Below, piece by piece: positions 9,353 to 60,510 of a DNA stretch of 64,000 nucleotides. The position numbers and the translations under genes were made by a program. The notes under the pieces were generated by a model, which saw only the letters and a program-made list of their open reading frames with translations, was not told the origin of the DNA and made no database searches. The stretch covers positions 672,001-736,000 of the forward strand of contig CP084166.1 of NCBI GenBank assembly GCA_021513695.1. The letters run 5' to 3'. This stretch comes from Candidatus Heimdallarchaeum aukensis. Its GTDB lineage: Archaea > Asgardarchaeota > Heimdallarchaeia > Heimdallarchaeales > Heimdallarchaeaceae. Numbering within the stretch: position 1 is the stretch's first letter; each line of letters begins with the position of its first letter.

Positions 9353-9473
9353 CTCCTTACTAGTAAAAATTAGTATAAAAAAGATATAAATGTTCCTTTT
9401 CTTTGAGATTTAGGTTTAGATTTTCTCATTTTCAGATATAGACCTAAAGATAATGTTTTTTCGTTTCCGAAAT

Positions 9474-9481
9474 CTTTTAAA
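9474..9481 (+). promoter_or_regulatory. TATA-box-like element (TTTTAAAT) about 28 nt upstream of the tldD start
   Basis: An AT box at archaeal BRE/TATA spacing relative to the ATG at 9506, suggesting a leaderless transcript. Confidence 0.3.
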
Positions 9482-9505
9482 TGTGTATGACCCTTTCTTT
9501 ACAGA

Positions 9506-10948: not shown

Positions 10949-10949
10949 G

Positions 10950-12332
10950 GTGAAAAAAATGAGTCTAGAAGAACAAAAAAATCAAGTTTTGGAACTCACA
11001 GATTTAGCTCTTGAAAAAGCAAGAGCACTGAATTGTGATGCTTCTATAAATGTAAGTGTAGGAAAAGAGTATGCTACTCGTTTCTCTAACAGCGAGATAT
11101 TACAGAATTATGTAGATTTAAGAAGATTAATTGAGATAACAGTAGTTTATAAAGATAAACAACGTGCTTCTTCCACTACAAATACTTTTACTAAAGAAAA
11201 TATAATTAATCTGGTAGAATTTTTAGCTAAAGTTGCTAAAACTGTTTCTCCTGACCCTTCTTATCCTGGAATTGTAAAAGAAAAACACAGCTATCCTAGC
11301 TTAAAGTTAAACGATACTAAAGCTTCTCGAGTTAACCCTGATTATATTGCGGATAGAATTGCTGCAACTATTGACGCTGGTGAATCAATTGATAAGAGGA
11401 TAGGAGGAGTATCTGGAAACTTACTTTTCTCTAATGGTTTTGAATATCACAAATCTACTACAGGAAACGAGCTTTTCTATCCTTCTACGGTAATTGAATC
11501 AACCATCAATATCAACGCTCTCAGTGGTGGAGAAGAAAGTAGATCAAACAGTATTTTTGGAAGCAGGTTCTTTGATAAATTGCCACTAGAAAAAGAAGCA
11601 GAAGAAGTTGCAGAAAGAGCTTTAAGAGGATTAAATGCCAAATCTATTGAACCAGGTAATTATGAAGTAATACTTGACCACCAAGCAGTGAGTACAATAC
11701 TATTTTTTGTAGGGTATGCAACTTCTTCAAGATTGATAATTAACAGAGCAAGTTTCCTTAATGATAGAATTGGACAACAAGTTTTCGATGATGATCTATC
11801 TCTCATTAATGACCCACATAACCCTGAACATCTATCAGCTAGACCAATCGACGACGAGGGATTACCTACAACTAGGTTTCCAGTGATAGAAGAAGGAATT
11901 CTTAAGAATTACTCATATTCGAGACTAGACGCTGCAAGATTAGGAGCAAAAGCACAAGGAACTGGTTTTTCATTTATGGGTAATGCAATAGGATTTCCAT
12001 TTGCTGAAACAATCCAACCTGGAGACATGAAGGTAGAAGAGATGGTCGCTGATATAAAAGACGGATTACTAATAACAAACCTACATTATACTAACTTTGT
12101 AAATCCTCCTGTTGGAAGTATAACTGGAATGAGTAAAGATGGTTTATTTATAATTAAAAATGGAGAAATAGTTGGTTCTGCAAAGAACATGCGTTTCACA
12201 GATACAATTCCAAACATACTCAAAGATATTGATGTAGGAAAAGAACTTAAACAACCTGGAGGAAGGTTTGCAAATATAGTTGCTCCTATCAGAACAAAGA
12301 ACTTCAGATTTACAAGTAAAACAACTCACTAA
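10950..12332 (+). CDS. pmbA: PmbA/TldE family protein (TldD partner)
   Basis: 460 aa TldD/PmbA-family paralogue lacking HExxxH. Begins 2 nt after the tldD stop. Confidence 0.8.
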   Translation: MKKMSLEEQKNQVLELTDLALEKARALNCDASINVSVGKEYATRFSNSEILQNYVDLRRLIEITVVYKDKQRASSTTNTFTKENIINLVEFLAKVAKTVSPDPSYPGIVKEKHSYPSLKLNDTKASRVNPDYIADRIAATIDAGESIDKRIGGVSGNLLFSNGFEYHKSTTGNELFYPSTVIESTININALSGGEESRSNSIFGSRFFDKLPLEKEAEEVAERALRGLNAKSIEPGNYEVILDHQAVSTILFFVGYATSSRLIINRASFLNDRIGQQVFDDDLSLINDPHNPEHLSARPIDDEGLPTTRFPVIEEGILKNYSYSRLDAARLGAKAQGTGFSFMGNAIGFPFAETIQPGDMKVEEMVADIKDGLLITNLHYTNFVNPPVGSITGMSKDGLFIIKNGEIVGSAKNMRFTDTIPNILKDIDVGKELKQPGGRFANIVAPIRTKNFRFTSKTTH

Positions 12333-12448
12333 CTTCTACTTTTTTTCAATTTTTAACAGTAAAAATGCTGTGCGTATCATTTCTTTCTTTGAAAAACTTT
12401 TGAATTCAAGAACAACTAAGAAAAATCAGTCCAAAATAATCAACATTG

Positions 12449-12456
12449 TTTTATAT
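12449..12456 (+). promoter_or_regulatory. TATA-box-like element (TTTTATAT) about 26 nt upstream of the methyltransferase ATG
   Basis: Matches the archaeal TATA consensus at the spacing expected for a leaderless mRNA. Confidence 0.3.
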
Positions 12457-12477
12457 TGAAATAATTTTTTTGTTTTA

Positions 12478-13563
12478 ATGAAAATTAATCGTATTTACAA
12501 GAGAGATTGTATTGAAGGATTAAAGCAACTTCAAGAAAATTCAGTGGATTTAATATTTGCAGATCCACCTTATAATCTACAATTGCGTAACGAACTTTAT
12601 CGCCCTGATCAATCCAAAGTAGATGCGGTTAATGACAAATGGGATAGATTCTATTCTTTTGAAGAATATGACAATTTCTCTTTAAAATGGCTGAAAGAAT
12701 GCAGACGTGTATTGAAACCCACAGGCTCTATATGGGTAATAGGGACTTATCATAATATTTTCAGGATAGGTAAAATTATGCAAGATTTAGGTTTTTGGAT
12801 ACTAAACGACATAATTTGGGTAAAAACAAATCCTATGCCCAATTTTAAAGGAACAAGGTTCAATAACGCACATGAGACACTTATTTGGGCTGCTAAAGAA
12901 AAAAATGCAAAACAAACTTTTCATTACAAATCAATGAAGATTATGAATGATAATAAACAAATGCGAAGCGATTGGTATTTACCTATTTGTATTGGTAATG
13001 AAAGGTTAAAAAATAATGGAAAGAAGGTTCATTCTACTCAGAAACCTGAATCTCTCCTCTACCGTATAATTTTATCTTCTTCCAATGTTGGAGATCTAGT
13101 TTTAGACCCTTTTATGGGTACAGGAACAACTGCTGCTGTTGCTAAAAAACTGCGAAGGAATTACATCGGATTTGAGATTGATGATTATTACATTAGTGAA
13201 GCAGAAAAAAGAATTGCTAAAGTTTTACCTTTATCCGAAGATCTTTTAGATTACAAAATTGAAAAAAAACCTCCTAAAGTATCCTTTGGTATGCTAATTG
13301 AGAACAAATACATCAATCCGGGGGATTTTCTTTATTCCAGAGATTTAAAACACAAAGCAATTATTAAGGCTAATGCTTCAATTGAATATGAAGGGAAAGT
13401 GGGTTCTATTCATTCTATTAGTGCTTTTATTTTAGGAAAAAAAGCAAATAACGGTTGGGAATTCTGGTACTTAAAGAATAGCTCTGGTGAATTGGTATCT
13501 ATTGATTCACTAAGAAAAAAATTCGCAGTGAATGAATGGGGTGAAGAATGGAATGTCATCTAA
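12478..13563 (+). CDS. DNA methyltransferase, beta-class N6-adenine/N4-cytosine (DPPY before FxGxG), with approx 110-aa C-terminal extension
   Basis: Motif IV FADPPYNL near the N-terminus and motif I FMGTGTT downstream (beta permutation), as in the CcrM/M.RsrI group. C-terminal extra domain with GWEFWY. Confidence 0.85.
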   Translation: MKINRIYKRDCIEGLKQLQENSVDLIFADPPYNLQLRNELYRPDQSKVDAVNDKWDRFYSFEEYDNFSLKWLKECRRVLKPTGSIWVIGTYHNIFRIGKIMQDLGFWILNDIIWVKTNPMPNFKGTRFNNAHETLIWAAKEKNAKQTFHYKSMKIMNDNKQMRSDWYLPICIGNERLKNNGKKVHSTQKPESLLYRIILSSSNVGDLVLDPFMGTGTTAAVAKKLRRNYIGFEIDDYYISEAEKRIAKVLPLSEDLLDYKIEKKPPKVSFGMLIENKYINPGDFLYSRDLKHKAIIKANASIEYEGKVGSIHSISAFILGKKANNGWEFWYLKNSSGELVSIDSLRKKFAVNEWGEEWNVI

Positions 13564-13627
13564 AAAGAATAACCTTCAACTCACATTAAATGGAAAAGGT
13601 TATCATAGATAAGATCCATTTAGCTTT

Positions 13628-14938
13628 ATGAAGTTATCCAAGGACAAAGTCAACTATCTTATTTTTGAAGGTGGTGGAGGAAAAGGAGTTACTTATATTG
13701 GGGCTTTAGAAGCTCTTGAAGAATTAGGTATTCTCAGATTTACTGAAAAAAATATAGGAGAAAAGGTTGTTACTCATCTTGCTCCAAATTGCTTGAAAGG
13801 AGTAGCTGGAACTTCAGTTGGTTCACTTTTTGCTTTACTTGTATCTTTGGGCTACAACTCACAAGAAATAAGAGAATTATTAAAAAGCAACTTAACTGAC
13901 GAGTTTCTAGATACTATCGAATTTGGTTTGATTCAATCAATTTATAGCCAGCTTACTGAACAATCTTTTGTTAAAGACCCTCAACTAGAAATATCTACAA
14001 ATTTCGTTGAGAATAAATGGTCTTCTTTTCTTCAAAAACAAGAGAAATCTTTCAAAGATTTGTTTGCTTACCCTCTTAAAATGATCAAGCAAGCAAATTA
14101 TTATATCCTCTCAATGTTCATCAAATTTCTTCTTTATTATGAATCAAGAAAAATAAAGAATGAAAAACCATCTAACGAAACAGAAACTACATTTATCCCT
14201 ACATTACGAGACTTTGCGCAGTCAAAAACTCTAAAAAATGCTGTAGATAAAATTTTGGATAAACCAGCCGATGCTCTTAATAGTCTTAAATATGAATTTG
14301 GTTTTTTCCTTGGCAATGGGGCAAGAGAAGTTATAGATAGGTTAATTGAAGAAAGAACAGGAGTGAAAAACTGTACTTTCAATCAATTTTATGAAATTTT
14401 AGGAATTGATCTTGTTATTACTTCTTTTGATTTACAGACAAAACAAGTTGAATACTTAAGAAAAGATTCTAAATGGAAAAACCTTTGTGTGGCAGATGCA
14501 GTAAGAATGTCAATTTCTATTCCATTAGTCTTCAAACCTGTTGTTATTAACATGAAAGACGAGTTCATTCTTCCAATTACAGATGATGTTTCTTATGCTC
14601 ATTATTTCATTGATGGTGGAGCAGCAAACAATTTTCCCCTTCATGTTTTTGATGATAGAGAAGACAAACTAAATCCCTACGTTCTAGGATTTACTCTATC
14701 GTATAAAAGACAATATAATCCTTTTATTGAAGAAATTACTTTCTTTGAATATTTAGAAGATGTCTTCCTTTCAGTTCTTAAACAGACAACAAATTTACAA
14801 TTCAAAAAGAAAGAAGAACAAGAACAAGTGATAGAACTTGACCCAGAGTACATAAAAGTACTTGACTTTTCTTTTGATGAGATACCAGAAAAAACAATAC
14901 AAAAAGCAAAGAAGAAAACACTAGAATATTTCAAATGA
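13628..14938 (+). CDS. patatin-like phospholipase
   Basis: Oxyanion hole FEGGGGKGVTYIGAL, nucleophile elbow GTSVGS (GxSxG), and catalytic Asp in IDGGAANNFPL (DGG). There is a long insertion between GxSxG and DGG. Confidence 0.75.
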   Translation: MKLSKDKVNYLIFEGGGGKGVTYIGALEALEELGILRFTEKNIGEKVVTHLAPNCLKGVAGTSVGSLFALLVSLGYNSQEIRELLKSNLTDEFLDTIEFGLIQSIYSQLTEQSFVKDPQLEISTNFVENKWSSFLQKQEKSFKDLFAYPLKMIKQANYYILSMFIKFLLYYESRKIKNEKPSNETETTFIPTLRDFAQSKTLKNAVDKILDKPADALNSLKYEFGFFLGNGAREVIDRLIEERTGVKNCTFNQFYEILGIDLVITSFDLQTKQVEYLRKDSKWKNLCVADAVRMSISIPLVFKPVVINMKDEFILPITDDVSYAHYFIDGGAANNFPLHVFDDREDKLNPYVLGFTLSYKRQYNPFIEEITFFEYLEDVFLSVLKQTTNLQFKKKEEQEQVIELDPEYIKVLDFSFDEIPEKTIQKAKKKTLEYFK

Positions 14939-44102: not shown

Positions 44103-44819
44103 TTATTCGGAACTTTTAATAAGTATTTTTTTTAAGACTTTTTCAGCAGCTTTTTTTCTAGCTATTTTTTTCTTTTCTCCAACTGCTCTTTCACAAATAA
44201 TTACATTCCCTAAATTTACTTGACATTCTATTTCAAATTCAGGGCGGTGCTCTTCTCCTCTTTTTTCGATTAAAATAAATTTGGGCATGTCAATCTTATT
44301 TTTTTGACAATATTCTTGTAATTCATTTATTGGATTTTGTTCACATACAGATTGCTCTAGTAGTTTTTCTAAACCTTCTTTAGTTTTACTTTGATTTTTT
44401 ATTGTTTCAAGCTTTTCCTCAAAGATCATTATTACAAACTTTTCTGCTTCTTCTGCTCCTTTACTAACATATATTGCTCCACACATTGCCTCGACACAAT
44501 CTTCTATATCTGAATCTAATATATGATAGTCTTGTGCTGTTATGATATATTTTGCTACATTCAATTTTTTACCTACTTCTGCAAGAGAATCAGTTCTGAC
44601 AACAATTGATCTGAGTTTAGTAAGAATTCCTTCTTTTTCATCAATATTCAGATATAACCATTTAGCAACAACTAGATCAATGACAGCGTCACCTACAAAT
44701 TCAAGTCTTTCATAATTAGGAATGGATGATTGATCAGTGTAGCTAGGGTGTAAAAAAGCTTCAGTAAGTACTTTTTCATCAAGCTTAAGAGTGTCTTTGA
44801 GGTATGAATAAATCTCCAT
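44103..44819 (-). CDS. rnc: ribonuclease III
   Basis: Signature ERLEFVGDAV, catalytic acidic residues, and a C-terminal dsRBD-like region with the KKKIARKKAAEK basic helix. Confidence 0.8.
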   Translation of the reverse strand: MEIYSYLKDTLKLDEKVLTEAFLHPSYTDQSSIPNYERLEFVGDAVIDLVVAKWLYLNIDEKEGILTKLRSIVVRTDSLAEVGKKLNVAKYIITAQDYHILDSDIEDCVEAMCGAIYVSKGAEEAEKFVIMIFEEKLETIKNQSKTKEGLEKLLEQSVCEQNPINELQEYCQKNKIDMPKFILIEKRGEEHRPEFEIECQVNLGNVIICERAVGEKKKIARKKAAEKVLKKILIKSSE

Positions 44820-49695: not shown

Positions 49696-50526
49696 TTAAC
49701 AGAGTGACTCAATCCACTGAATCATATCCTCTATCGCTCCTTTTCCATCCTCAAATATTTCATTATATATCTCATGCTTGCAGTTATCATAAACTATTTT
49801 CTTTTTATTTTCAGAGCCGAAAGAGTTAAACAATTCTTCCTGACCAATCATAGTTGTGTCATCTTTTCCATATTGCATCAAAATTGGAACAGTAATCTGT
49901 TTAAGCTGTTCTTTTACTTTTTTGTAGTGAGTAACGAAATTCTTTCCTAATGCACAAGTAGCTGTTTTATAATTAACTAAAGTGTCATTTATGTATTTCT
50001 CCACATTTTCTTTGTTATAAGATAGACCATTAGGATCAAGCATTGAAGGCAGTCGCAACTTTGGAGCAACAGTACCTAAAAATATCACAATTGGGTTTAA
50101 GATTACAGGATTTGTGCTGTTTCTTGTTCCTGTTCCTGAAAGTATCATTCCTTTGATTTTATCTTGATATTTAATGGCATAGGAATAGGCTATTATACTC
50201 CCCATTGAATGACCTAATATGAATAGGGGTAAATTTTTGTACTCTTTTGTTATTATATCAGTTAATATTTTTTCGTCTTCAACATATTCAAAGAAACTCT
50301 TTGCATGATTCCTTACCCCCTCACTTTTCCCATGCCCCCTATGATCATCCGCGACAACTATAAATCCTCTAGAATTTAGTTTCTTTGCTACATGTTGATA
50401 TCGACCCGAGTGCTCTCCAAAGCCGTGGAAAATTTGAACAATTCCCTTAGGATTTTCAACTTTCCAAATTCTATAAAAGATATTTAGATTATCTTTTGTT
50501 TCAAATGAACTTTCTTTATAATTCAT
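49696..50526 (-). CDS. alpha/beta hydrolase (lysophospholipase/monoacylglycerol lipase-like)
   Basis: HGFGEHSGRY, nucleophile elbow GHSMGS, C-terminal Asp/His. Confidence 0.75.
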   Translation of the reverse strand: MNYKESSFETKDNLNIFYRIWKVENPKGIVQIFHGFGEHSGRYQHVAKKLNSRGFIVVADDHRGHGKSEGVRNHAKSFFEYVEDEKILTDIITKEYKNLPLFILGHSMGSIIAYSYAIKYQDKIKGMILSGTGTRNSTNPVILNPIVIFLGTVAPKLRLPSMLDPNGLSYNKENVEKYINDTLVNYKTATCALGKNFVTHYKKVKEQLKQITVPILMQYGKDDTTMIGQEELFNSFGSENKKKIVYDNCKHEIYNEIFEDGKGAIEDMIQWIESLC

Positions 50527-50562: not shown

Positions 50563-51477
50563 TCAAAAAGTATTTTTATTAGATATTTTTAATTTTTCTA
50601 GAATCAGTTTAGCAATGTTTTCGATTGTTTCTTGAATATCTTTAACAGATTTATCTTCTGAATCTATTTCAACAACAGTTTTTTTCTCAATCATCGCTTG
50701 AGTAAAGATGTGGTTATGCGGTATTTTCGCAATAACAGGAAAGTCTTTTTCAAATTTATCTTCAATCTCTTGAGTTATTTCCATGTTTATGTCACTTTTA
50801 TTGACTACTATAAAACCTGGAATATTGAACTGTTTTAAAAGCTCTAGAACTCTTTCTAAATCGTGTTTTCCAGAAATGGTTGGTTCACTAACAACTATAG
50901 CCAGATGGCTTCCAGATAAAGAACTTATAACCGGACAGCCAATACCTGGAGAGCCATCAATTAAAACCAATGATTTATTCTTTTCTTTTGCAACCTGTAA
51001 GGCTTTCTTTCTTACTTCTGCAACCAACAATCCGCTACTTTCTTCTCCAGGAACAAGTCTTGCATGAATCATTTTTCCAATTCTTGTATCAGAAACAAAA
51101 TAATTACCACTAACTCTTTCAATCATAGTTATTGCATCAACAGGACATACATGTTTGCATAATCCGCATCCTTCACAACGTACTATTTCAATATTTAATT
51201 CTTGATCTATTGCTCCATAACGACATGATTCATAACATTTCATACATTTTGTACATTTATCAAAATCTATTACGGCCTTTTTTGTTCCATAATAATCTGT
51301 TTTTTCTGATTTCTCAGGAGAGAATATAAGATACAAGTCAGCAGCGTCTACATCAGCATCTGCAAGAATAGAATAATTTTGAAGTAAGTAGGCTAAAGAA
51401 GAAATTAGTGAAGTTTTTCCAGTTCCACCCTTACCACTTATTACAGTTACTTGTTTTATATCTGTATTATCACTCAT
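50563..51477 (-). CDS. MinD/ParA-superfamily P-loop ATPase with inserted 2x[4Fe-4S] ferredoxin domain
   Basis: Deviant Walker A GKGGTGKTS. Two Cx2Cx2Cx3CP motifs (CTKCMKCYESC, CEGCGLCKHVCP). Confidence 0.8.
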   Translation of the reverse strand: MSDNTDIKQVTVISGKGGTGKTSLISSLAYLLQNYSILADADVDAADLYLIFSPEKSEKTDYYGTKKAVIDFDKCTKCMKCYESCRYGAIDQELNIEIVRCEGCGLCKHVCPVDAITMIERVSGNYFVSDTRIGKMIHARLVPGEESSGLLVAEVRKKALQVAKEKNKSLVLIDGSPGIGCPVISSLSGSHLAIVVSEPTISGKHDLERVLELLKQFNIPGFIVVNKSDINMEITQEIEDKFEKDFPVIAKIPHNHIFTQAMIEKKTVVEIDSEDKSVKDIQETIENIAKLILEKLKISNKNTF

Positions 51478-52315
51478 TTTTCACTTCCTCCGTAATCTCT
51501 TCTATCATCTGTTGAAATTTCTCTTTCCATTCTGGAAAAGTAGTTAGGAAATTATTACCAACAGAATAGGATTTAGCTATCTTCAGATCAAAAGGAATAC
51601 GTAAAAGAATAGGAATATTATTTTCTTTGCAATAGTTTTCTAATTCTTCATTGCCTATTCCCTCTTTATTTATTATCACTCCAAATTTTTTGTTTAACTG
51701 ATATAAGGTTTCTACTACAACTTTCATGTCAGAAAGACCAAATGGTGTGGGTTCTGCAACGACTATTACATAGTCAACATCTATTACTGTTTCTACCATA
51801 GGACAAGCTGACCCAGGAGGAGAATCAAATATCACATAATCCTTCTTTTTATCTACTTGTTCCTTAAGAGTAGAAATTATAGGTGTTGAGAGTTCTTCTC
51901 CAACTATAAGTTCACCATAGTCAAATCTTCTATTTCCTTTTATTCCTGAAAAGATTTTACCTAAACTCCTATTTTTTTCAGTTATTGCTTCTGTAGGACA
52001 AACAACAGAGCATACTCCACATCCATGACATATTCTATCAAAAACTAATATTTGATTCGGTAAATTAGCTAAAGCATTATATTCACAATTTTTCACACAT
52101 TCACCGCATAAAATGCACTTTGAGCTATCTATAACAGGAATAGGAATTTGTGCGTCTTTTACATGCTGTGTTCTTATATCCAAAAATAGTGAACAATTGG
52201 GTTCATCTACATCTGCATCGATTAATTGTACATTATCCAAGGATAAAAACAAACTTGTGGCAATGGTTGTTTTTCCAGTTCCACCTTTACCTGACACTAC
52301 AGCTATTGAAATCAC
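51470..52315 (-). CDS. MinD/ParA-superfamily P-loop ATPase with inserted 2x[4Fe-4S] ferredoxin domain (paralogue)
   Basis: GKGGTGKTT. CILCGECVKNC and CHGCGVCSVVCP. Overlaps the downstream paralogue by 8 nt. Confidence 0.8.
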   Translation of the reverse strand: MISIAVVSGKGGTGKTTIATSLFLSLDNVQLIDADVDEPNCSLFLDIRTQHVKDAQIPIPVIDSSKCILCGECVKNCEYNALANLPNQILVFDRICHGCGVCSVVCPTEAITEKNRSLGKIFSGIKGNRRFDYGELIVGEELSTPIISTLKEQVDKKKDYVIFDSPPGSACPMVETVIDVDYVIVVAEPTPFGLSDMKVVVETLYQLNKKFGVIINKEGIGNEELENYCKENNIPILLRIPFDLKIAKSYSVGNNFLTTFPEWKEKFQQMIEEITEEVKNE

Positions 52316-52381
52316 TTTCTTTACCTTCCTACATTTGTTTCAAATTAAAAAAAATAAACAAAAACATCTTTAATTGTGTAT

Positions 52382-52756
52382 TTAATGGTCATGATCATGG
52401 TCATGTTCGTGGTGCCCACAACCATCAGTTTTTGAAGCTAGTCTCAGTTTTCCTTCTTTGAAATTGTCAATTACATTCTTTACAGTTCCTTCAGCACCGA
52501 CATATACCCCAAGATTGAGTTCTTCTGCTAGTTGAATAGCTCTTGAACCTATTCCTCCACAGAGAAGAGCATTGCTATGTTTAGCTAAAAATTCAGCAGG
52601 CATCCCTACACCGCCAAAATGATTGCTTTCATTGTTAATTATTTTAAGTTCATTTGTTTCTTCATCCCAAATTGCATATAATGGAGCTCTTCCAAAATGT
52701 GCTGATACAGGGGAATCCCACCCTTTATCGTCTTCTACAGGAATTGCATATCTCAT
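52382..52756 (-). CDS. dinitrogenase iron-molybdenum cofactor biosynthesis-family (NifX/NafY-like) protein with His-rich C-terminal tail
   Basis: Small alpha/beta NifX-like pattern (HFGRAP..., LLCGGIGSRA). Tail GCGHHEHDHDHDH. Confidence 0.7.
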   Translation of the reverse strand: MRYAIPVEDDKGWDSPVSAHFGRAPLYAIWDEETNELKIINNESNHFGGVGMPAEFLAKHSNALLCGGIGSRAIQLAEELNLGVYVGAEGTVKNVIDNFKEGKLRLASKTDGCGHHEHDHDHDH

Positions 52757-52767
52757 CTTTTTTCCTC

Positions 52768-53097
52768 CTAAACTTTTTTTAGTTCATTTTTTTCTAGTTT
52801 CTCTATCAAATTTTTCCAAGGTTCAACTTGACCTTCATAAATCGTGATATTGGAAGCTCGTAACACTTGTTCTGCATTAGGGCCTACTCTTGGAGCAATA
52901 ACTGCTTTTACCCCTTGAGAAACAAGAAATTCAGAAGCTTTAACTCCTGCTCCTCCTCTTGCCATAGCAGAGGGATTTTCATGATATTCATATTCTTTTG
53001 AATCTGAATCGTATATTAGATAATATAACGCTCTTCCAAATCTACTTGCCATTGAAGCATCTTCAGATCTTTCATCTATTGGTATTCCTATTTTCAT
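52768..53097 (-). CDS. NifX/NafY-like (dinitrogenase FeMo-cofactor family) protein
   Basis: MKIGIPIDE...SRFGRA...GVKAVIAPRVGPNA pattern. Confidence 0.7.
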   Translation of the reverse strand: MKIGIPIDERSEDASMASRFGRALYYLIYDSDSKEYEYHENPSAMARGGAGVKASEFLVSQGVKAVIAPRVGPNAEQVLRASNITIYEGQVEPWKNLIEKLEKNELKKV

Positions 53098-53402
53098 AAA
53101 ATCACTTCTTTATCTTTGTTTAATTCTGGTTCAGAGTCGAATTTTATAGCTTGATTTTCAAATAAAGCAGTAGCTATTTTTTTTCTTGCAATTCTTAAAT
53201 CTCTACTATAACTTGACTGAGATATACCCATCTTTTTTGCTGCTTCAACTTGCTTCAATCCCAAGTAATCAGCATAGTACAACACAGTTATTTCTTCTTT
53301 TGTTAGTATTTGTGTCTCCAGCTCCTTAAATGGTATAGCCACTGGCTTGAACACATGTTCGTTTACATCTATACAACAACGTTTTATCTTCCTCTGAACC
53401 AT
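53094..53402 (-). CDS. DUF134-family predicted DNA-binding protein
   Basis: VFKPVAIP...LTKEEITVLYYADYLGLKQVEAAKKMGISQSSYSRDLRIARKKIATAL matches the DUF134/UPF0251 pattern (sigma-70 region-4-like HTH). Confidence 0.6.
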   Translation of the reverse strand: MVQRKIKRCCIDVNEHVFKPVAIPFKELETQILTKEEITVLYYADYLGLKQVEAAKKMGISQSSYSRDLRIARKKIATALFENQAIKFDSEPELNKDKEVIL

Positions 53403-53535
53403 ACATCAGAAATTTTTCTAATTGATTATATAAACATTTAGTTATGAATAATTATTCACATATATGGTGATAAACACCTTTATTCTAAGAAGAAAAAGTC
53501 AAAAATTAGGGTTTAAAGCAAAATAGAAAGAAAAA

Positions 53536-53967
53536 TCAGTCAGTTATTTCTATCTCAATAAGGTTATGATTAATAATTGAATGAGCAATCCTTTTTCTAA
53601 GACCTTTAAGATAGCGCCAAACACTTGTTTGAGATATTCCTAATTTCTCGGCTATCTCTTTCTGAGTTAGCTCCTCTACATCAGCCATTTTTAAAATTTC
53701 TAATTCAAAACTGGATATAGCAAGAATATTATGAGGTTGATTTATTCTACGATTAATAGGGATAGAATAAGCTACAGGAGGACGCCCTTTCCTAAAATGT
53801 TTTCTACGTATGCCATGCGGACCATGCATTCCTCCTCTTCTCATTCCTCGCCTAGGTCCTCCGCCCATACCTCTTCTCGGAGGAAAGAGTTGATTATTAA
53901 GATTAGTTTTTTCTTCTTCTTTTCTCGTTTTTTCACCGTTTGATGGTTCGTCATTCATACTGTTCAC
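53536..53967 (-). CDS. DUF134-like HTH protein with Arg/Gly/Met-rich N-terminal low-complexity extension
   Basis: C-terminal ELEILKMADVEELTQKEIAEKLGISQTSVWRYLKGLRKRIAHSII. N-terminal PPRRGMGGGPRRGMRRGGMHGPHGIRRKHFRKGRPP. Confidence 0.5.
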   Translation of the reverse strand: MNSMNDEPSNGEKTRKEEEKTNLNNQLFPPRRGMGGGPRRGMRRGGMHGPHGIRRKHFRKGRPPVAYSIPINRRINQPHNILAISSFELEILKMADVEELTQKEIAEKLGISQTSVWRYLKGLRKRIAHSIINHNLIEIEITD

Positions 53968-54004
53968 TCTTTGAAAAAAGAAAAAAACAAATAAAAAAGT
54001 GTTT

Positions 54005-54355
54005 TTACTTATTCAATTTCTGTTTTTCTTCTTCTAGTAAAGATATTTCTTTTTGAAGATACTCTATTTGCTTTTCGATTAATGAAATCTCATAATCTAT
54101 GGCGTTTTCATTGGATGGTTTTCCATATGGATCCCATTGTGCATTTGTTGGTGGATTTTCTACTCCTTGATATTCAGGCATTGCCCACCAACCCCTTGGT
54201 CTGTCGGGGAAAAAGTCACAATTTGGACTTATCCATCTACGTCCTCCAAAACCTGCACCAAATCCTCTTCTAAATCCAAATCCTCGTCCATAACCGTATC
54301 CTCTTCCATACCCATATCCGGGGCCATATCCATATCTTCTATATCTGTATGCCAT
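54005..54355 (-). CDS. DUF5320-like low-complexity (Tyr/Gly/Arg-rich) protein with C-terminal coiled coil
   Basis: MAYRYRRYGYGPGYGYGRGYGYGRGFGFRRGFGAGFGGRRW followed by a Trp/Pro-containing linker and the heptad-rich ISLIEKQIEYLQKEISLLEEEKQKLNK. Confidence 0.5.
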   Translation of the reverse strand: MAYRYRRYGYGPGYGYGRGYGYGRGFGFRRGFGAGFGGRRWISPNCDFFPDRPRGWWAMPEYQGVENPPTNAQWDPYGKPSNENAIDYEISLIEKQIEYLQKEISLLEEEKQKLNK

Positions 54356-54514
54356 TTTTTCACCTCAAATGTTTTTGAGTTATTACTCAATATTAGTTAG
54401 ACTTTGCCGATATATAAAGTTTATGTTTTGCGTTATAATTCAAAAATTGTTTTCAGTAATTACACAACTACAAATTTAAAAAAGGTTGAATTGGAAATAA
54501 GTCGGTAGATAATA

Positions 54515-55792
54515 ATGGTAGACGTGAAACCTTTTCGAGGGATAAGATATACTGAAAAAGCAGGAGATATAGCAAATTTAATTGCACAGCCATATGATAA
54601 AATTGATGAAGAAATGCAGAAAGAATACTATGAAAAATCAGAATATAATTACTGTAGACTAACATTACCAATGGAAGAAGACAGATATAATGTTGCTAGA
54701 AAAAGATTAGAAGAATGGTTAGCTAATGAAATACTACAAAAAGATGAAGACCCAGCCTTTTATGTTTATTTCCAAGAATTCGAACTTTTCGGAAAAAAAT
54801 TTATTCGTAAAGGCTTTATTGGAGCATTAAGACTACACCCATTTGAAGAAAATATAGTTCTTCCTCATGAGAAGACTCACAAAGGACCAAAAATCGACAG
54901 ATTAAACATGCTAAAAACAACTAAACACACTTTAGAACCTGGATTCATCCTTTATTCTGATAATGATAAAGTAACGATTAGTATTTTTGAAGAGGTTGCC
55001 CAAAAAGAAAAACCAATAATTGATGTAGTCGACAGTTTAGGAGCCAGAAATAGAGTATGGAAACTTACTGATCCCGAAAAAATAAAAAGAGTTCAAGAAA
55101 TTTTCAAAGATCAACAGTTAGTAATTGCAGATGGACATCACCGGTATGAAACAGCTTGTACTTACAGAGACATGAGAAGGGAAGAAAAGAAAGATTGGGA
55201 CGAAAATGATGCTTTTAATTTTAGAATGACTTATTTAGTTCCTGTAGAAGATGAAGGTCTAGTAGTACTTGCTACACATAGATGTCTAGCAAAAGTAAAA
55301 GTTACACCAGAACAAGAAGAGATTTTTAAGAAGTACTTTGAGATAGAGGAAATATCCAAAGAAAAAATACCTGAATTTTTGGAGAAAAACCAAGACAATC
55401 ATGTCTTTGTTTATTATCAAGATGGCAAAGCTAAATCTATGATTATGAAGGATCCTACCACAATCAATGAATTTGTTAAAGATAGAAGTGAAGAATACAA
55501 GAATCTAGATGTCGTAATTCTTCGAGACATGATCTTTCAAGGAATTATGGGACTATCAGATTTAAAGATAGATGATGATATTTTCTACGAGAGATGGTGG
55601 AATGAAGCAATTCAGAAAGTTGATGAAGGAAAATATAAAGTTGTTTTCATTCTCAATCCTACTAGAGCAAAACAAGTTTTAGCTGTTGCCAAAAATCATG
55701 AAAGAATGCCTCAAAAATCTACAGACTTCTATCCAAAAATGATTAGTGGTCTTACAATGATGAGTTTAGAAGATGGAGAAAAATTGAACTAA
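54515..55792 (+). CDS. DUF1015-like protein (full-length copy)
   Basis: N-terminal VKPFRGIRY...AQPYDKIDEE pattern and about 425 aa. Weak family recognition. Confidence 0.45.
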   Translation: MVDVKPFRGIRYTEKAGDIANLIAQPYDKIDEEMQKEYYEKSEYNYCRLTLPMEEDRYNVARKRLEEWLANEILQKDEDPAFYVYFQEFELFGKKFIRKGFIGALRLHPFEENIVLPHEKTHKGPKIDRLNMLKTTKHTLEPGFILYSDNDKVTISIFEEVAQKEKPIIDVVDSLGARNRVWKLTDPEKIKRVQEIFKDQQLVIADGHHRYETACTYRDMRREEKKDWDENDAFNFRMTYLVPVEDEGLVVLATHRCLAKVKVTPEQEEIFKKYFEIEEISKEKIPEFLEKNQDNHVFVYYQDGKAKSMIMKDPTTINEFVKDRSEEYKNLDVVILRDMIFQGIMGLSDLKIDDDIFYERWWNEAIQKVDEGKYKVVFILNPTRAKQVLAVAKNHERMPQKSTDFYPKMISGLTMMSLEDGEKLN

Positions 55793-57260
55793 AGTTTTCT
55801 AAACTCTTTTTTCTTCATATTTTTAATCTACTTTAATTGCATATCTTTTTTCTGCTTCTTTAGAATATAAAGCCAAGAGTTTATCGAAATTCTCTTTTTC
55901 TAGATAACCATGTGCTGTCATCATTTCAGTGAATCTTTTCGGGAATTTTTGATAAGCTTCTTTAAGACTAAAGCCTTCTGCATATTTGAACTGTAATCTT
56001 TTTCTCTGTATTTCTTTTCCTATTTTTAGTAGTCTTCATCAGTTCTGTTGATTTTTAAGCTCTCTAAAGCTTGAATTGTTGTATTCATATCGTATACTCC
56101 TCTAGCAAAAAGGCAAATAACCATGCTGTTTAGAACGTTTCTCCACTCTTCTTCATTCATTAGAGAATTCATTCCTTGTTCAAAAGTTATTGGTTTATTC
56201 AGTACTTTTTGGTCCAGTGAATAACCAGCGTTGTCTAGATGACTGTGTCTTCCACCAACGAGAAAACCCATAATAGCATAATATCCAGTTCTATAACCTG
56301 CAGGTTCTAGTTTTGCTACTCTTATACCGAAATCATTTCCGCCATATTTCTCTACAAGAGCTTCTACTCCCTTTGAAGCTGTATAATAAAGTTCGCTTTC
56401 TTCTGTAGCTTTAGATATTTTTCCGATGATAGATAAGAAATCATCCACCCTACCAAATCTAATTAATTCTCCTTCTGTGTCTTTAGGACTAATTAAGTTT
56501 CTTTCATATGCTTCAGCTAACCAAGCCAGAACAACTCCTGTAGATATAGCGTCCATTCCTTCTTTCTCAATAGCTTCAATTAGTTTTAAGATATCTTTGG
56601 CATTACCTATCTTAAGATTTGAACCAAGAGCATAGATGAGTTCGTAATCGTAAGATACAGCAATAGAGTGAATGTCAGCTACAGTTCCTTTTTCCCATCT
56701 TTCTCTTAAGATTGCTAAATGAATACAACCGATTGGACAACCTCCGCAAGCTACTCTTTTGCCTAACAATTCTGAAGCGAAATATTCACCAGAGATATTT
56801 TCAGCTTCTTCAAAGTAGCTTTCTGCAAAGTTCTTAGTAGGTAAGGATTTTAACGCATTTAGAGGTAATATTCCCGCAGCTGTCCCAAGAACATGATATT
56901 TGGCCATTAAATTTGTTTCAGTAGTTTTCTTGTATATTTCTCTAAACACTCTTCTATATTGTTTATAATTAGTATTTGACTCCAAAGAAATGGGTTGATC
57001 TCCGATAATTGCGAAACCTTTAACATTCTTGCTTCCTAAAACTGCGCCTAGACCTGTTCTACCGAAATGCCTTGTTCTGTCTACAGTTGCACAAGCATAA
57101 GGAATTAATCTTTCTCCTGCTGGTCCAATTGTTACCACAGAACGATTACCAGGATGACCTATCTTTTCTCTTATAATTCTACCAGTTGTATTGGGAGACA
57201 TATACATTAGAGGTTTAGCATTAACAAATTGAACTCCATCTTCATAAGAAACAAAGTAGA
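54801..57260. repeat. tandem direct repeat, copy 1 (approx 2.46 kb)
   Basis: Sequence from 54801 is repeated from 57261 with a 2460/2461-nt offset. Verified at multiple points; differences listed in findings. Confidence 0.9.
55823..57260 (-). pseudogene. aldehyde:ferredoxin oxidoreductase, 5'-truncated and frameshifted duplicate copy
   Basis: Identical to the C-terminal approx 480 codons of the AOR gene at 58283-60085, except for a 1-nt deletion near 56034 (agtcttc versus agttcttc) that terminates the frame (…INRTDEDY*). The N-terminus is cut by the duplication junction at 57260. Confidence 0.6.
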
Positions 57261-58252
57261 TTATTCGTAAAGGCTTTATTGGAGCATTAAGACTACACCC
57301 ATTTGAAGAAAATATAGTTCTTCCTCATGAGAAGACTCACAAAGGACCAAAAATCGACAGATTAAACATGCTAAAAACAACTAAACACACTTTAGAACCT
57401 GGATTCATCCTTTATTCTGATAATGATAAAGTAACGATTAGTATTTTTGAAGAGGTTGCCCAAAAAGAAAAACCAATAATTGATGTAGTCGACAGTTTAG
57501 GAGCCAGAAATAGAGTATGGAAACTTACTCCTCCCGAAAAAATAAAAAGAGTTCAAGAAATTTTCAAAGATCAACAGTTAGTAATTGCAGATGGACATCA
57601 CCGGTATGAAACAGCTTGTACTTACAGAGACATGAGAAGGGAAGAAAAGAAAGATTGGGACGAAAATGATGCTTTTAATTTTAGAATGACTTATTTAGTT
57701 CCTGTAGAAGATGAAGGTCTAGTAGTACTTGCTACACATAGATGTCTAGCAAAAGTAAAAGTTACACCAGAACAAGAAGAGATTTTTAAGAAGTACTTTG
57801 AGATAGAGGAAATATCCAAAGAAAAAATACCTGAATTTTTGGAGAAAAACCAAGACAATCATGTCTTTGTTTATTATCAAGATGGCAAAGCTAAATCTAT
57901 GATTATGAAGGATCCTACCACAATCAATGAATTTGTTAAAGATAGAAGTGAAGAATACAAGAATCTAGATGTCGTAATTCTTCGAGACATGATCTTTCAA
58001 GGAATTATGGGACTATCAGATTTAAAGATAGATGATGATATTTTCTACGAGAGATGGTGGAATGAAGCAATTCAGAAAGTTGATGAAGGAAAATATAAAG
58101 TTGTTTTCATTCTCAATCCTACTAGAGCAAAACAAGTTTTAGCTGTTGCCAAAAATCATGAAAGAATGCCTCAAAAATCTACAGACTTCTATCCAAAAAT
58201 GATTAGTGGTCTTACAATGATGAGTTTAGAAGATGGAGAAAAATTGAACTAA
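57261..58252 (+). pseudogene. DUF1015-like protein, N-terminally truncated duplicate copy
   Basis: Identical to codons approx 96-425 of the gene at 54515-55792, except GA to CC at 57530-57531 (Asp to Pro). The first in-frame Met is at 57368. Confidence 0.55.
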
Positions 58253-59723
58253 AGTTTTCTAAACTCTTTTTTCTTCATATTTTTAATCTACTTTAATTGC
58301 ATATCTTTTTTCTGCTTCTTTAGAATATAAAGCCAAGAGTTTATCGAAATTCTCTTTTTCTAGATAACCATGTGCTGTCATCATTTCAGTGAATCTTTTC
58401 GGGAATTTTTGATAAGCTTCTTTAAGACTAAAGCCTTCTGCATATTTGAACTGTAATCTTTTTCTCTGTATTTCTTTTCCTATTTTTAGTAGTTCTTCAT
58501 CAGTTCTGTTGATTTTTAAGCTCTCTAAAGCTTGAATTGTTGTATTCATATCGTATACTCCTCTAGCAAAAAGGCAAATAACCATGCTGTTTAGAACGTT
58601 TCTCCACTCTTCTTCATTCATTAGAGAATTCATTCCTTGTTCAAAAGTTATTGGTTTATTCAGTACTTTTTGGTCCAGTGAATAACCAGCGTTGTCTAGA
58701 TGACTGTGTCTTCCACCAACGAGAAAACCCATAATAGCATAATATCCAGTTCTATAACCTGCAGGTTCTAGTTTTGCTACTCTTATACCGAAATCATTTC
58801 CGCCATATTTCTCTACAAGAGCTTCTACTCCCTTTGAAGCTGTATAATAAAGTTCGCTTTCTTCTGTAGCTTTAGATATTTTTCCGATGATAGATAAGAA
58901 ATCATCCACCCTACCAAATCTAATTAATTCTCCTTCTGTGTCTTTAGGACTAATTAAGTTTCTTTCATATGCTTCAGCTAACCAAGCCAGAACAACTCCT
59001 GTAGATATAGCGTCCATTCCTTCTTTCTCAATAGCTTCAATTAGTTTTAAGATATCTTTGGCATTACCTATCTTAAGATTTGAACCAAGAGCATAGATGA
59101 GTTCGTAATCGTAAGATACAGCAATAGAGTGAATGTCAGCTACAGTTCCTTTTTCCCATCTTTCTCTTAAGATTGCTAAATGAATACAACCGATTGGACA
59201 ACCTCCGCAAGCTACTCTTTTGCCTAACAATTCTGAAGCGAAATATTCACCAGAGATATTTTCAGCTTCTTCAAAGTAGCTTTCTGCAAAGTTCTTAGTA
59301 GGTAAGGATTTTAACGCATTTAGAGGTAATATTCCCGCAGCTGTCCCAAGAACATGATATTTGGCCATTAAATTTGTTTCAGTAGTTTTCTTGTATATTT
59401 CTCTAAACACTCTTCTATATTGTTTATAATTAGTATTTGACTCCAAAGAAATGGGTTGATCTCCGATAATTGCGAAACCTTTAACATTCTTGCTTCCTAA
59501 AACTGCGCCTAGACCTGTTCTACCGAAATGCCTTGTTCTGTCTACAGTTGCACAAGCATAAGGAATTAATCTTTCTCCTGCTGGTCCAATTGTTACCACA
59601 GAACGATTACCAGGATGACCTATCTTTTCTCTTATAATTCTACCAGTTGTATTGGGAGACATATACATTAGAGGTTTAGCATTAACAAATTGAACTCCAT
59701 CTTCATAAGAAACAAAGTAGATT
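57261..59723. repeat. tandem direct repeat, copy 2
   Basis: See copy 1. The distal junction at 59720-59723 reads gtagatt|ggttctgg, where the unique AOR 5' sequence resumes. Confidence 0.9.
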
Positions 59724-60085
59724 GGTTCTGGAGATTTACCCTTTAAAATTATAACTCCTAAGTTATTAAAACGCATTGCTGTTGATAACCTTCCTCCAGC
59801 ATAAGATTCACCTAAATTGCCAGTTAATGGACTCTTAAAAACTGCACAAGTTTTGGAAGCAACGGGAAAATATGTATTTAGAGGTCCAATAGCAAAAATT
59901 ACAACATTTTCTGGAGAAAGAGGATCTACTCCTGTTTGAAGATGTTGATTGAGTAATTCAATACCTACACCTATTCCTCCCATATACTTATCAAAAAGAT
60001 TCTCTGATTCATAAATCTCGAATGAGAGATCACTTAAATTAATTTCTAAAATATTTGGATATAACACTTTCAACTCACCTACCAT
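58283..60085 (-). CDS. aor: tungsten-type aldehyde:ferredoxin oxidoreductase (AOR family), full-length
   Basis: About 600 aa. N-terminal MVGELKVLYPNILEINLSD...GGIGVG, GLGAVLGSKNVKG, and C-terminal AFOR_C-like helical domain. The likely start is the internal Met of the ORF-track protein (60085), giving a 7-nt overlap with the ferredoxin gene. Confidence 0.85.
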   Translation of the reverse strand: MVGELKVLYPNILEINLSDLSFEIYESENLFDKYMGGIGVGIELLNQHLQTGVDPLSPENVVIFAIGPLNTYFPVASKTCAVFKSPLTGNLGESYAGGRLSTAMRFNNLGVIILKGKSPEPIYFVSYEDGVQFVNAKPLMYMSPNTTGRIIREKIGHPGNRSVVTIGPAGERLIPYACATVDRTRHFGRTGLGAVLGSKNVKGFAIIGDQPISLESNTNYKQYRRVFREIYKKTTETNLMAKYHVLGTAAGILPLNALKSLPTKNFAESYFEEAENISGEYFASELLGKRVACGGCPIGCIHLAILRERWEKGTVADIHSIAVSYDYELIYALGSNLKIGNAKDILKLIEAIEKEGMDAISTGVVLAWLAEAYERNLISPKDTEGELIRFGRVDDFLSIIGKISKATEESELYYTASKGVEALVEKYGGNDFGIRVAKLEPAGYRTGYYAIMGFLVGGRHSHLDNAGYSLDQKVLNKPITFEQGMNSLMNEEEWRNVLNSMVICLFARGVYDMNTTIQALESLKINRTDEELLKIGKEIQRKRLQFKYAEGFSLKEAYQKFPKRFTEMMTAHGYLEKENFDKLLALYSKEAEKRYAIKVD

Positions 60086-60510
60086 TCTCCTGTAGCTTCT
60101 TCCATTACTAAAACACCAGTAGAGCAATATTGAACGCAAGCTCCACACTGACGACATACTATTGCTTTATTGATATCAACATCAATATGTATTGCACCAG
60201 GGATAGGACATGCTTCTATGCATTCTTGATTACACTTACTTGCATCACAAATTTCTCTGTCGACAATAACCCCTCCACCCTGTCTTGGTTTAATCGCTCC
60301 AGGAATAGGACAAGCAGGAGCACAAGGAGGAGATCTACAACCTCTACAGACTACGACAACATAATTGCGTTCTATTCCCCCACTTGCTTTAACTGTAATT
60401 GAACTACGATAATTAGACAATAATTTTTCATTTGTCCTAGAACAAGCATAAACACATTCTAAACAACCAATACATCTATCTAGATTTTTGACTCTTAATC
60501 TTTTGCCCAT
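60079..60510 (-). CDS. multi-cluster 4Fe-4S ferredoxin (AOR-associated electron-transfer subunit)
   Basis: Four Cys clusters: CIGCLECVYAC, CRGCRSPPCAPACP, CNQECIEACP, CRQCGACVQYC. Confidence 0.7.
   Translation of the reverse strand: MGKRLRVKNLDRCIGCLECVYACSRTNEKLLSNYRSSITVKASGGIERNYVVVVCRGCRSPPCAPACPIPGAIKPRQGGGVIVDREICDASKCNQECIEACPIPGAIHIDVDINKAIVCRQCGACVQYCSTGVLVMEEATGEW

Follow-up and report, generated by a model that had tools for sequence, protein, structure and literature searches.

The window analysed here, a stretch of 64,000 nucleotides of DNA from Candidatus Heimdallarchaeum aukensis with a G+C content of about 30%, carries at 50563-54355 a cluster of seven minus-strand genes that encode two MinD-type ATPases with an inserted ferredoxin domain (MinD-Fd), two small NifX-like proteins, two DUF134 proteins and one DUF5320-like protein. 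With middling confidence, these genes are best explained as the Heimdallarchaeaceae version of an iron-sulfur (Fe-S) handling system of the ORP/IssA type, encoded in a neighbourhood that is common to many anaerobes. That the cluster is homologous to ORP/IssA-type systems is very probable, and its likely function would be the ATP- and redox-driven handling of Fe-S clusters.

The storage of Fe-S clusters in strict anaerobes, and their delivery to the many Fe-S enzymes of these organisms, are poorly understood, and since 2011 no settled role has emerged for the ORP complex. The locus and its relatives tie together the ORP ATPases, the IssA-type NifX-like proteins, the DUF5320 family (through gene fusion) and the DUF134 family (through a conserved operator). 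Two elements of this picture are new here. One is a DUF5320 protein that looks like a detachable, IssA-like cationic tail equipped with a coiled coil; the other is a palindrome, TGARTN4AYTCA, which is found in both promoters of the cluster and in eight related loci and points to control by DUF134.

ATPases related to the ORP complex and their conserved neighbours

Central to the cluster are the two paralogous MinD-Fd ATPases, B (281 amino acids; 51470-52315, minus strand) and A (304 amino acids; 50563-51477, minus strand), the genes of which share eight nucleotides (51470-51477). Pfam assigns to each a CbiA/ParA P-loop domain and two Fer4 motifs, in agreement with an earlier note, made from the sequence alone, that had described two overlapping MinD-like ATPases with a 2x[4Fe-4S] insert. 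Invariant in both paralogues and in all lineages sampled are a deviant Walker A motif, SGKGGTGKT, with its signature Lys, the switch-I aspartates and the Walker B Asp. The ferredoxin insert follows switch I, and its eight cysteines, arranged as two CxxCxxCxxxC motifs, are invariant in both paralogues, as is a single Cys seven residues past the Walker B Asp (Cys171 in B). In NifH, a cluster-ligand Cys is found at the same +7 offset from the Walker B Asp, and chaperones of the CooC, HypB and Nbp35 type carry Cys motifs at their dimer interface. The ATPase is 99% identical to one annotated from a Candidatus Heimdallarchaeaceae genome, and its AlphaFold model (pLDDT 94.9) has archaeal MinD, ApbC, FlhG, ATPase-type HypB and Cfd1 as its nearest solved folds. 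The ferredoxin insert is present in none of these folds and in none of the solved homologues returned by a sequence search.

The earlier note had named MinD-Fd ATPases, NifX-like proteins and DUF134 as a recurrent neighbourhood in anaerobes, and had held that the idea would fail if the genes proved to be scattered in related genomes. The comparison bears out the recurrence, and the genes are not scattered. It covers 80 genome loci (L011-L090) among the matches listed in a scan with an ATPase alignment, one genome per species, drawn for the most part from anaerobes: among archaea, Altiarchaeota, methanogens, Bathyarchaeia, Thermoplasmata, Thor- and Heimdallarchaeota; among bacteria, Dehalococcoidia, Clostridia, Desulfobacterota, Omnitrophota, Planctomycetota, Bacteroidota, Ignavibacteria and others. 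Gene families are counted as the number of loci with a member, from six-frame open reading frames searched with hidden Markov models (HMMs) built from our own seeds. The B-then-A pair is adjacent on the same strand in 75 of the 80 loci, and most of the others meet a contig end. A NifX-like gene lies within 6 kb in 75 loci, with two copies in 53, and DUF134 is found in at least 24. Linkage of the cluster genes is far above chance. Further neighbours are an Mrp/ApbC-like ATPase gene (37 loci), an IscU-like NifU_N gene (31), a gene for an FmdB-type zinc-ribbon protein of about 80 amino acids (29) and one radical SAM family (18); all four are lacking in the window. The IscU-like and Mrp/ApbC-like neighbours suit the earlier proposal of a role in metallocluster handling. 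Genes of Fur-like, FeoB-like and DtxR-like type, assigned by eye from their sequence, were also seen at 8, 5 and 4 of the loci, respectively.

The relation to the ORP complex is evident from a Desulfobacteraceae locus, L036, in which a sigma-54 PAS activator is followed by two NifX-like genes, MrpORP and the MinD-Fd genes B and A. Its MrpORP scores 518 bits against an NCBI equivalog cut-off of 450, and L036 is a bona fide orp-type locus, the make-up of which matches the D. vulgaris orp genes as described (PMC6345978, PMC8359166). Over residues 4-281, window ATPase B and its L036 counterpart share 43% identity. The earlier note had taken the cluster to be uncharacterised and without any demonstrated function; since the Desulfovibrio ORP complex contains homologues of both the ATPase pair and the NifX-like proteins, the first part no longer applies in full. 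Orp3, Orp4 and Orp8 co-purify, carry Fe-S clusters and are reloaded by MrpORP in vitro (PMC6345978), and expression of the orp operons is confined to very low redox potential (PMC8359166). The second part stands insofar as the cellular role of ORP is only putative. Because the two ATPase genes are conserved as a pair, keep a constant B-then-A order and have co-purifying counterparts in Orp3 and Orp4, paralogues B and A point to a heterodimer, which may serve ATP-gated transfer of electrons or clusters.

A different reading, first proposed for the Desulfovibrio ORP, has the MinD-like ATPases and their partners positioning the septum or another structure. The ATPases do belong to the MinD/ParA class, with archaeal MinD as the nearest solved fold, and one report states that loss of orp expression leads to morphological defects in D. 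vulgaris and that MrpORP is polar (PMC6345978, citing Fievet 2011). However, the ATPases score only 55-58 bits with the NCBIfam model minD_arch and 32-38 bits with minD_bact, against cut-offs of 201.75 and 212.9, and every member of the family carries both the 2x[4Fe-4S] insert and the switch-II Cys. The conserved neighbours, moreover, are NifX-, IscU- and Mrp/ApbC-like and not division genes. We consider a cell-division or positioning system quite improbable.

The neighbourhood also bears on a possible role in the handling of Mo or W thiometallates, in which the NifX-like proteins would bind heterometal clusters with thiomolybdate or thiotungstate and would serve or protect W enzymes such as the nearby AOR. 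The orange protein of D. gigas carries an S2MoS2CuS2MoS2 cluster (PMC6345978). An AOR gene (56026-57207) is found some 1.7 kb away from the cluster, and a full copy at 58283-60157; in L006, a second Heimdallarchaeaceae locus, 7 kb separate another AOR gene from the orthologous module, and genes for MoaA and a ModA/WtpA-like protein lie nearby in L010. Co-occurrence with AOR, a lead of the earlier note, is nevertheless not borne out across genomes: the window AOR protein has no relative in the 80 loci, ModA/WtpA-like genes are likewise found in 0/80 and MoaA-like genes in 2/80, as against the 31 and 37 loci with IscU-like and Mrp/ApbC-like genes. Thiometallate handling is, in our estimation, a distinctly unlikely explanation.

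NifX-like proteins and the DUF5320-like protein

The two NifX-like proteins, which the earlier note had rightly recognised as such, match Pfam Nitro_FeMo-Co (cut-off 26.3 bits) with 68 bits for protein 1 (109 amino acids, without Cys and without a tail; 52768-53097, minus strand) and 60 bits for protein 2 (124 amino acids; 52382-52756, minus strand). They represent two conserved paralogue classes. Protein 2 belongs to the class with Cys/His-rich tails (DGCGHHEHDHDHDH), with TM1816 and PH0822 as its nearest solved structures; a GCGHHEHDHDHDH tail, described earlier as metal-binding, is present in a window translation. Protein 1 has MTH1175 as its best solved relative (E 9.5e-14) and falls in the MTH1175/IssA- and ORP-type class, members of which bear arginine/glycine-rich (RG) or DUF5320 tails in other lineages. 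MTH1175 is a tail-less member of the IssA clade according to the IssA authors (PMC5524996). The D. gigas ORP structure 2wfb is matched by both proteins (E 2.6e-7 and 1.6e-5).

A Nitro_FeMo-Co domain in both small proteins, together with weak Fer4_NifH matches of the ATPases (E 0.004-0.01), could suggest that NifX/NafY-like proteins and NifH-like ATPases serve the cofactor maturation of a nitrogenase or nitrogenase-like enzyme encoded elsewhere. Against this, the NifX, NafY and NifH models all score below cut-off, and NCBIfam gives both NifX-like proteins only weak MrpORP matches. There is no nif gene within the cluster, and the seven family models match nothing else in the window, in which nif genes themselves were not searched for. 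No family resembling nitrogenase genes is among the largest conserved neighbour families of the 80 loci, part of which were annotated. Nitrogenase maturation is an explanation to which we give next to no credence.

The remaining member of the set, a protein of 116 amino acids (54005-54355, minus strand), is the only one of the seven whose family assignment is not backed by Pfam. It had been called DUF5320-like, and it does not reach the Pfam cut-off for DUF5320 (PF17253; 13 bits against 27, E 0.25), although the alignment extends over positions 8-97 of the 99 in the profile. Its translation shows a Tyr/Gly/Arg-rich N-terminal half followed by a heptad-rich C-terminus. Its closest relatives are found in Heimdallarchaeaceae, Lokiarchaeota, Promethearchaeota and Helarchaeota, and in the 19 Asgard homologues the N-terminus is rich in Gly, Arg and Tyr, the central SPNCDxxPDRPRGWW, with its one Cys, is invariant, and a Pro-rich linker leads to a coiled coil at the C-terminus. 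Sixteen of the 19 give weak PF17253 matches, and a profile of the Asgard family matches a PF17253-positive set, drawn from the same search, with an hhalign probability of 99.9%. The earlier assignment can be kept in this modified form, and the family is treated here as what appears, from profile comparison, to be a divergent DUF5320 subfamily. A Helarchaeota locus (L005, 7509-8366) has two DUF5320-type genes in tandem, with a divergent DUF134 gene about 0.3 kb upstream of the pair; one of the two is a distinct GLPGWMRxGFSPGW variant that is shared with L013.

In composition, the N-terminal half of the window protein recalls a known Fe-S storage protein. It has an isoelectric point (pI) of 10.65 and, in 60 residues, 16 Gly, 11 Arg and 17 aromatic residues. 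IssA consists of a NifX-like (IPR003731) globular domain and an unstructured tail of 70 residues with a pI of 10.7, rich in Gly, Arg and aromatic residues (PMC5524996). The tail is proposed to wrap around anionic thioferrate; the protein itself serves as a store of thioferrate and rebuilds [4Fe-4S] ferredoxin (PMC5524996). The comparison of the IssA tail with the window protein was made through this published description.

Gene fusions outside the Asgard group show that DUF5320 works with the NifX-like domain. An HMM built from the Asgard variants finds the family in only 9 of the 80 loci and overlooks all fused tails, and one built from canonical sequences finds it in 43: free-standing in 41 and fused to NifX in 11. 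At least 10 of the 11 fusions lie within about 0.7 kb upstream of the ATPase pair, and 16 of the 44 free-standing genes are directly upstream of a NifX gene. All seven fused tails tested score above the Pfam DUF5320 cut-off (31-45 bits), and for one fusion both PF02579 and PF17253 are present in all 120 of its best homologues. Further, the NifX class that is tail-less in the window carries an RG-rich tail in Methanotrichaceae and others and in three sampled Thorarchaeota loci (L016, L030, L055), the tails of which have no coiled coil; an RG-rich segment together with a coiled coil is attached to NifX in Dehalococcoidia, Desulfobacterales, Acidobacteriota and Methanobacteriota. The window DUF5320-like protein may thus be an IssA-like tail that is supplied in trans.

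Transcription units, DUF134 proteins and flanking genes

The earlier note had described a single cluster of seven co-directional, tightly packed genes. The coordinates and strand of the seven open reading frames are confirmed, but the genes form two transcription units: the first comprises the DUF5320-like and long DUF134 genes, and the second the short DUF134 gene, the two NifX-like genes and the MinD-Fd pair. Between the two units lie 133 bp of T-rich sequence with T-runs and a separate TATA box; within this spacer, several T4-T5 runs directly after the long DUF134 gene (53487-53535, minus strand) probably constitute an archaeal terminator region.

Both DUF134 assignments stand, at 48.9 bits for the short protein and 43.2 bits for the long one against a Pfam cut-off of 27 (PF02001). 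The short helix-turn-helix (HTH) protein (102 amino acids; 53094-53402, minus strand), the gene of which overlaps the next by 4 nucleotides, has the canonical N-terminal basic/Cys motif KRCCID..FKPVAIP. The long HTH protein (53536-53967, minus strand; gene callers place the start at 53958, giving 140 amino acids) has, as described before, an Arg/Gly/Met-rich N-terminal extension, which is RG-rich and ends in GRPPVAY with an AT-hook-like RGRP core. The extension is present in every long DUF134 homologue examined, with RG repeats ending in GRGRPP(V/I)A. The suggestion that it might belong to DUF5320 finds no support, as a profile search with the extension returned no Pfam family, DUF5320 included, even at E 10. 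Its resemblance to an AT-hook core would suit the AT-rich centre of the operator, a more economical explanation than a role in metal binding. Neither DUF134 nor the DUF5320-like family has a solved structure, and structure matches were spurious; searches of the literature for DUF134, DUF5320 and their COG numbers yielded nothing relevant. A further form of DUF134 was noticed in ten of the 80 loci (L026, L027, L038, L048, L053, L055, L063, L075, L080 and L081, all bacterial except L055 from Thorarchaeota). It has a C-terminal CxxC...CPxC zinc-ribbon-like segment, in most cases followed by an Arg/Gly-rich tail, whereas the Asgard long form is RG-rich at its N-terminus.

The control by DUF134 that the earlier note had proposed is supported by a palindromic operator in both promoters. 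In the promoter of the first unit, a TATA-like box (TTTATATA; 54411-54418, minus strand), the position of which is conserved in orthologous loci, presumably serves the DUF5320-like and long DUF134 genes. Operator site 1 (TGAATTATAACGCA; 54429-54442, minus strand) has one mismatch to TGARTN4AYTCA and lies 10 nucleotides upstream of this box; site 2 (TGAGTAATAACTCA; 54376-54389, minus strand), an exact match with perfect palindromic half-sites, lies downstream of the box and ahead of the start codon, where transcription is expected to begin. The promoter of the second unit has a perfect palindrome that matches exactly (TGAATAATTATTCA; 53445-53458, minus strand), 10 nucleotides upstream of a putative TATA box (TTTATATA; 53427-53434, minus strand), itself 24 nucleotides upstream of the short DUF134 start codon.

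The exact pattern occurs twice in the 64-kb window, both times inside the cluster promoters, and three times in L006 at the same three positions, a number reached in 0 of 200 shuffles; the pattern was derived from and counted in one and the same set of sequences, and support for the operator therefore rests on its positional conservation across loci. The palindrome recurs in eight related Asgard loci, and in seven of them (L093-L099) the two-site layout around the TATA box is present upstream of the DUF5320-like gene. The position of site 1 is also occupied in L006 and L093-L099, in some by near-matches; that of site 2 is exact in L006 and six of L093-L099 and a near-match in L098; and the second-unit operator has its orthologue at 14764-14777 of L006. 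The Lokiarchaeota locus L003 has related GGGTTATAACCC-type sites and no exact copy of the pattern, and scans for inverted repeats between the DUF134 and NifX genes of L018, L021, L024 and L037 found nothing consistent. From its presence in both promoters and its recurrence in relatives, this sequence pattern supports a single regulon controlled by a DNA-binding protein that acts as a dimer. Obvious candidates for it are the two DUF134 proteins of the cluster, either of which may be the one that binds. The DUF5320-like gene and the long DUF134 gene are always transcribed together, in keeping with autoregulation.

Whether the two units belong together at all deserves consideration, since the DUF5320-like and long DUF134 genes could form a self-contained regulatory module, with a disordered coiled-coil protein modulating the regulator and no tie to the NifX/MinD-Fd operon. 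The DUF5320-like gene directly precedes the long DUF134 gene in L003, in L006 and in nine of nine metagenome loci, two of which are near-identical to the window, and the pair stands alone, flanked by no NifX or MinD-Fd genes, in L003, L093 and L096. In L006, the short DUF134 gene, two NifX-like genes and the ATPase pair lie 6 kb from the DUF5320-like/DUF134 pair, behind a MoxR/VWA insert (8938-14756, encoding a MoxR-type AAA ATPase, an 864-amino-acid VWA protein and a 745-amino-acid protein without a Pfam match). However, one operator is common to both promoters in the window as well as in L006, and outside the Asgard group DUF5320 is associated with the MinD-Fd loci through the free-standing and NifX-fused genes described above. 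We regard two unrelated neighbouring units as unlikely.

Beyond the cluster, two adjacent genes were considered as parts of the system and set aside because neither has a counterpart in any of the 80 loci. One encodes an alpha/beta hydrolase (Hydrolase_4; 49696-50526, minus strand), follows the last ATPase gene on the same strand at a distance of 36 nucleotides and may be co-transcribed; the other is a DUF1015 gene (54515-55792). The latter overlaps a direct tandem repeat of about 2.4 kb (54797-57210 and 57257-59670; at least 99% identical, with one indel), which leaves the window with an additional, truncated copy each of the DUF1015 and AOR genes. Since an independent assembly (L001) ends within the DUF1015 gene, about 475 bp upstream of the DUF5320-like gene, the repeat may be an assembly artefact and not a real duplication. 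Further away, 44103-44819 (minus strand) encodes a protein of 238 amino acids with Ribonuclease_3 and dsrm domains, according to the Pfam matches of the identical L001 gene; in archaea, class-1 RNase III enzymes are uncommon. Searches of the window for tRNA genes and Rfam matches found none.

Proposed mechanism and comparison with known systems

On the observed homologies, conserved linkage, gene fusions and operator conservation, a mechanism for Fe-S handling can be sketched. The two NifX-like (IPR003731) proteins would hold an anionic Fe-S species, be it a cluster or a thioferrate-like polymer. The DUF5320-like protein would provide, in trans, the cationic Gly/Arg/aromatic segment that corresponds to the C-terminal tail of IssA, and its coiled coil would multimerise the assembly. 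The two MinD-type ATPases would form an ATP-dependent heterodimer in which the ferredoxin inserts, with 2x[4Fe-4S] each, pass electrons and the switch-II cysteines are placed where the subunits meet; this heterodimer would couple ATP hydrolysis to the loading or reduction of clusters or to their release to clients. A DUF134 dimer most likely binds TGARTN4AYTCA in both promoters, and the shared palindrome would make the two units one autoregulated regulon. Complex formation, Fe-S binding and transfer, and thioferrate storage are known from relatives and may by analogy apply here; the ligand, the direction of transfer and the part played by ATP and electrons would be those of the sketch.

A more specific version takes DUF5320 as a detachable IssA tail with a coiled coil. 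Tail-less NifX-like scaffolds together with DUF5320 would then build multimeric Fe-S storage particles, which the MinD-Fd heterodimer would load or mobilise with ATP and low-potential electrons, while DUF134 would act as the dedicated regulator. We advance this version tentatively, as a possibility that is rather less than probable. If true, a single system of Fe-S storage and delivery in anaerobes, the archaeal relatives of eukaryotes among them, would unite three domains that are widespread but of unknown function with IssA and the ORP complex.

Several points weigh against the interpretation as an ORP/IssA-type system. None of the window proteins has a known ligand or activity, and even for the ORP complex the function in the cell is not settled, having been put only as a putative link to cell division. 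The D. gigas orange protein, as mentioned above, was purified with a Mo-Cu cluster. An IssA-type cationic tail on the same chain would call for a protein pI of 9 or more and for Gly to make up no less than 20% of the last 40 residues; the window NifX-like proteins have pI values of 5.87 and 5.34 and no Gly-rich tail. Mrp/ApbC-like and IscU-like genes, which are frequent neighbours elsewhere, were not found in the window. Moreover, in Asgard archaea the link of the DUF5320-like gene with DUF134 is closer than that with NifX, as the three loci with the pair alone illustrate, and the likeness of its product to DUF5320 and to the IssA tail resides largely in low-complexity sequence. The operator pattern, too, carries the circularity stated above.

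The proposal has parts that can be tested: a five-protein set, a defined DNA site for DUF134 and a DUF5320 segment that is predicted to replace the IssA tail. The presence of the system in Heimdallarchaeaceae is, moreover, relevant to the Fe-S biology of the archaeal lineage to which eukaryotes are closest.

Among known systems, the SIMIBI metallochaperone ATPases (Mrp/NBP35/ApbC, CooC and ATPase-type HypB) and the nitrogenase Fe protein NifH share with the window ATPases the dimerising P-loop fold with a deviant Walker A motif. The window proteins, which score below cut-off for each of these families, differ in carrying redox clusters in an inserted ferredoxin domain and not at the dimer interface alone. 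Canonical DUF5320 proteins (PF17253) and the NifX-DUF5320 fusions of ANME-1/Methanophagales, Dehalococcoidia, Desulfobacterales and others proceed, like the window protein, from an RG-rich disordered region through a Pro-rich linker to a coiled coil, and canonical DUF5320 genes likewise have NifX and MinD-Fd genes in their neighbourhood. In contrast to these, the Asgard protein does not have the N-terminal MPxGDGTGPxGxGPMTGRGxGYC, its repeats are rich in Tyr and Phe instead of Met, and its gene is always followed by a DUF134 gene.

IssA of Pyrococcus furiosus has the IPR003731/NifX-like domain in common with the window proteins, and a cationic Gly/Arg/aromatic segment of about the same pI as its tail is also encoded in the window cluster. 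There, however, the tail-like segment is on a separate polypeptide, together with a coiled coil and SPNCDxxPDRPRGWW, and both NifX-like proteins are acidic and tail-less. The cluster further includes MinD-Fd ATPases, and such a partner is not mentioned for IssA in the IssA literature covered.

The ORP complex of D. vulgaris is encoded by the operons orp5-orp4-orp3 and orp7-orp8-orp9, which have sigma-54 promoters and a PAS/Fe-S activator, OrpR. It differs from the window system in its Mrp-like component, as an HMM search found no open reading frame of the two-domain MrpORP (Orp9) type in the 64-kb window, and the window proteins give only weak, partial matches to NF041136. In place of an EBP-type (OrpR-like sigma-54) activator, the seven genes include two DUF134 HTH proteins and have TATA promoters with a palindromic operator; archaea are not known to possess sigma-54. 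The window system has, in addition, a separate DUF5320-like protein, and its host is an archaeon. Common to the two are a pair of paralogous MinD-like ATPases, each with two [4Fe-4S] ferredoxin motifs (Orp3/Orp4), a single-domain Nitro_FeMo-Co protein (Orp8, the orange protein), tight clustering of the genes and an occurrence in anaerobes only.

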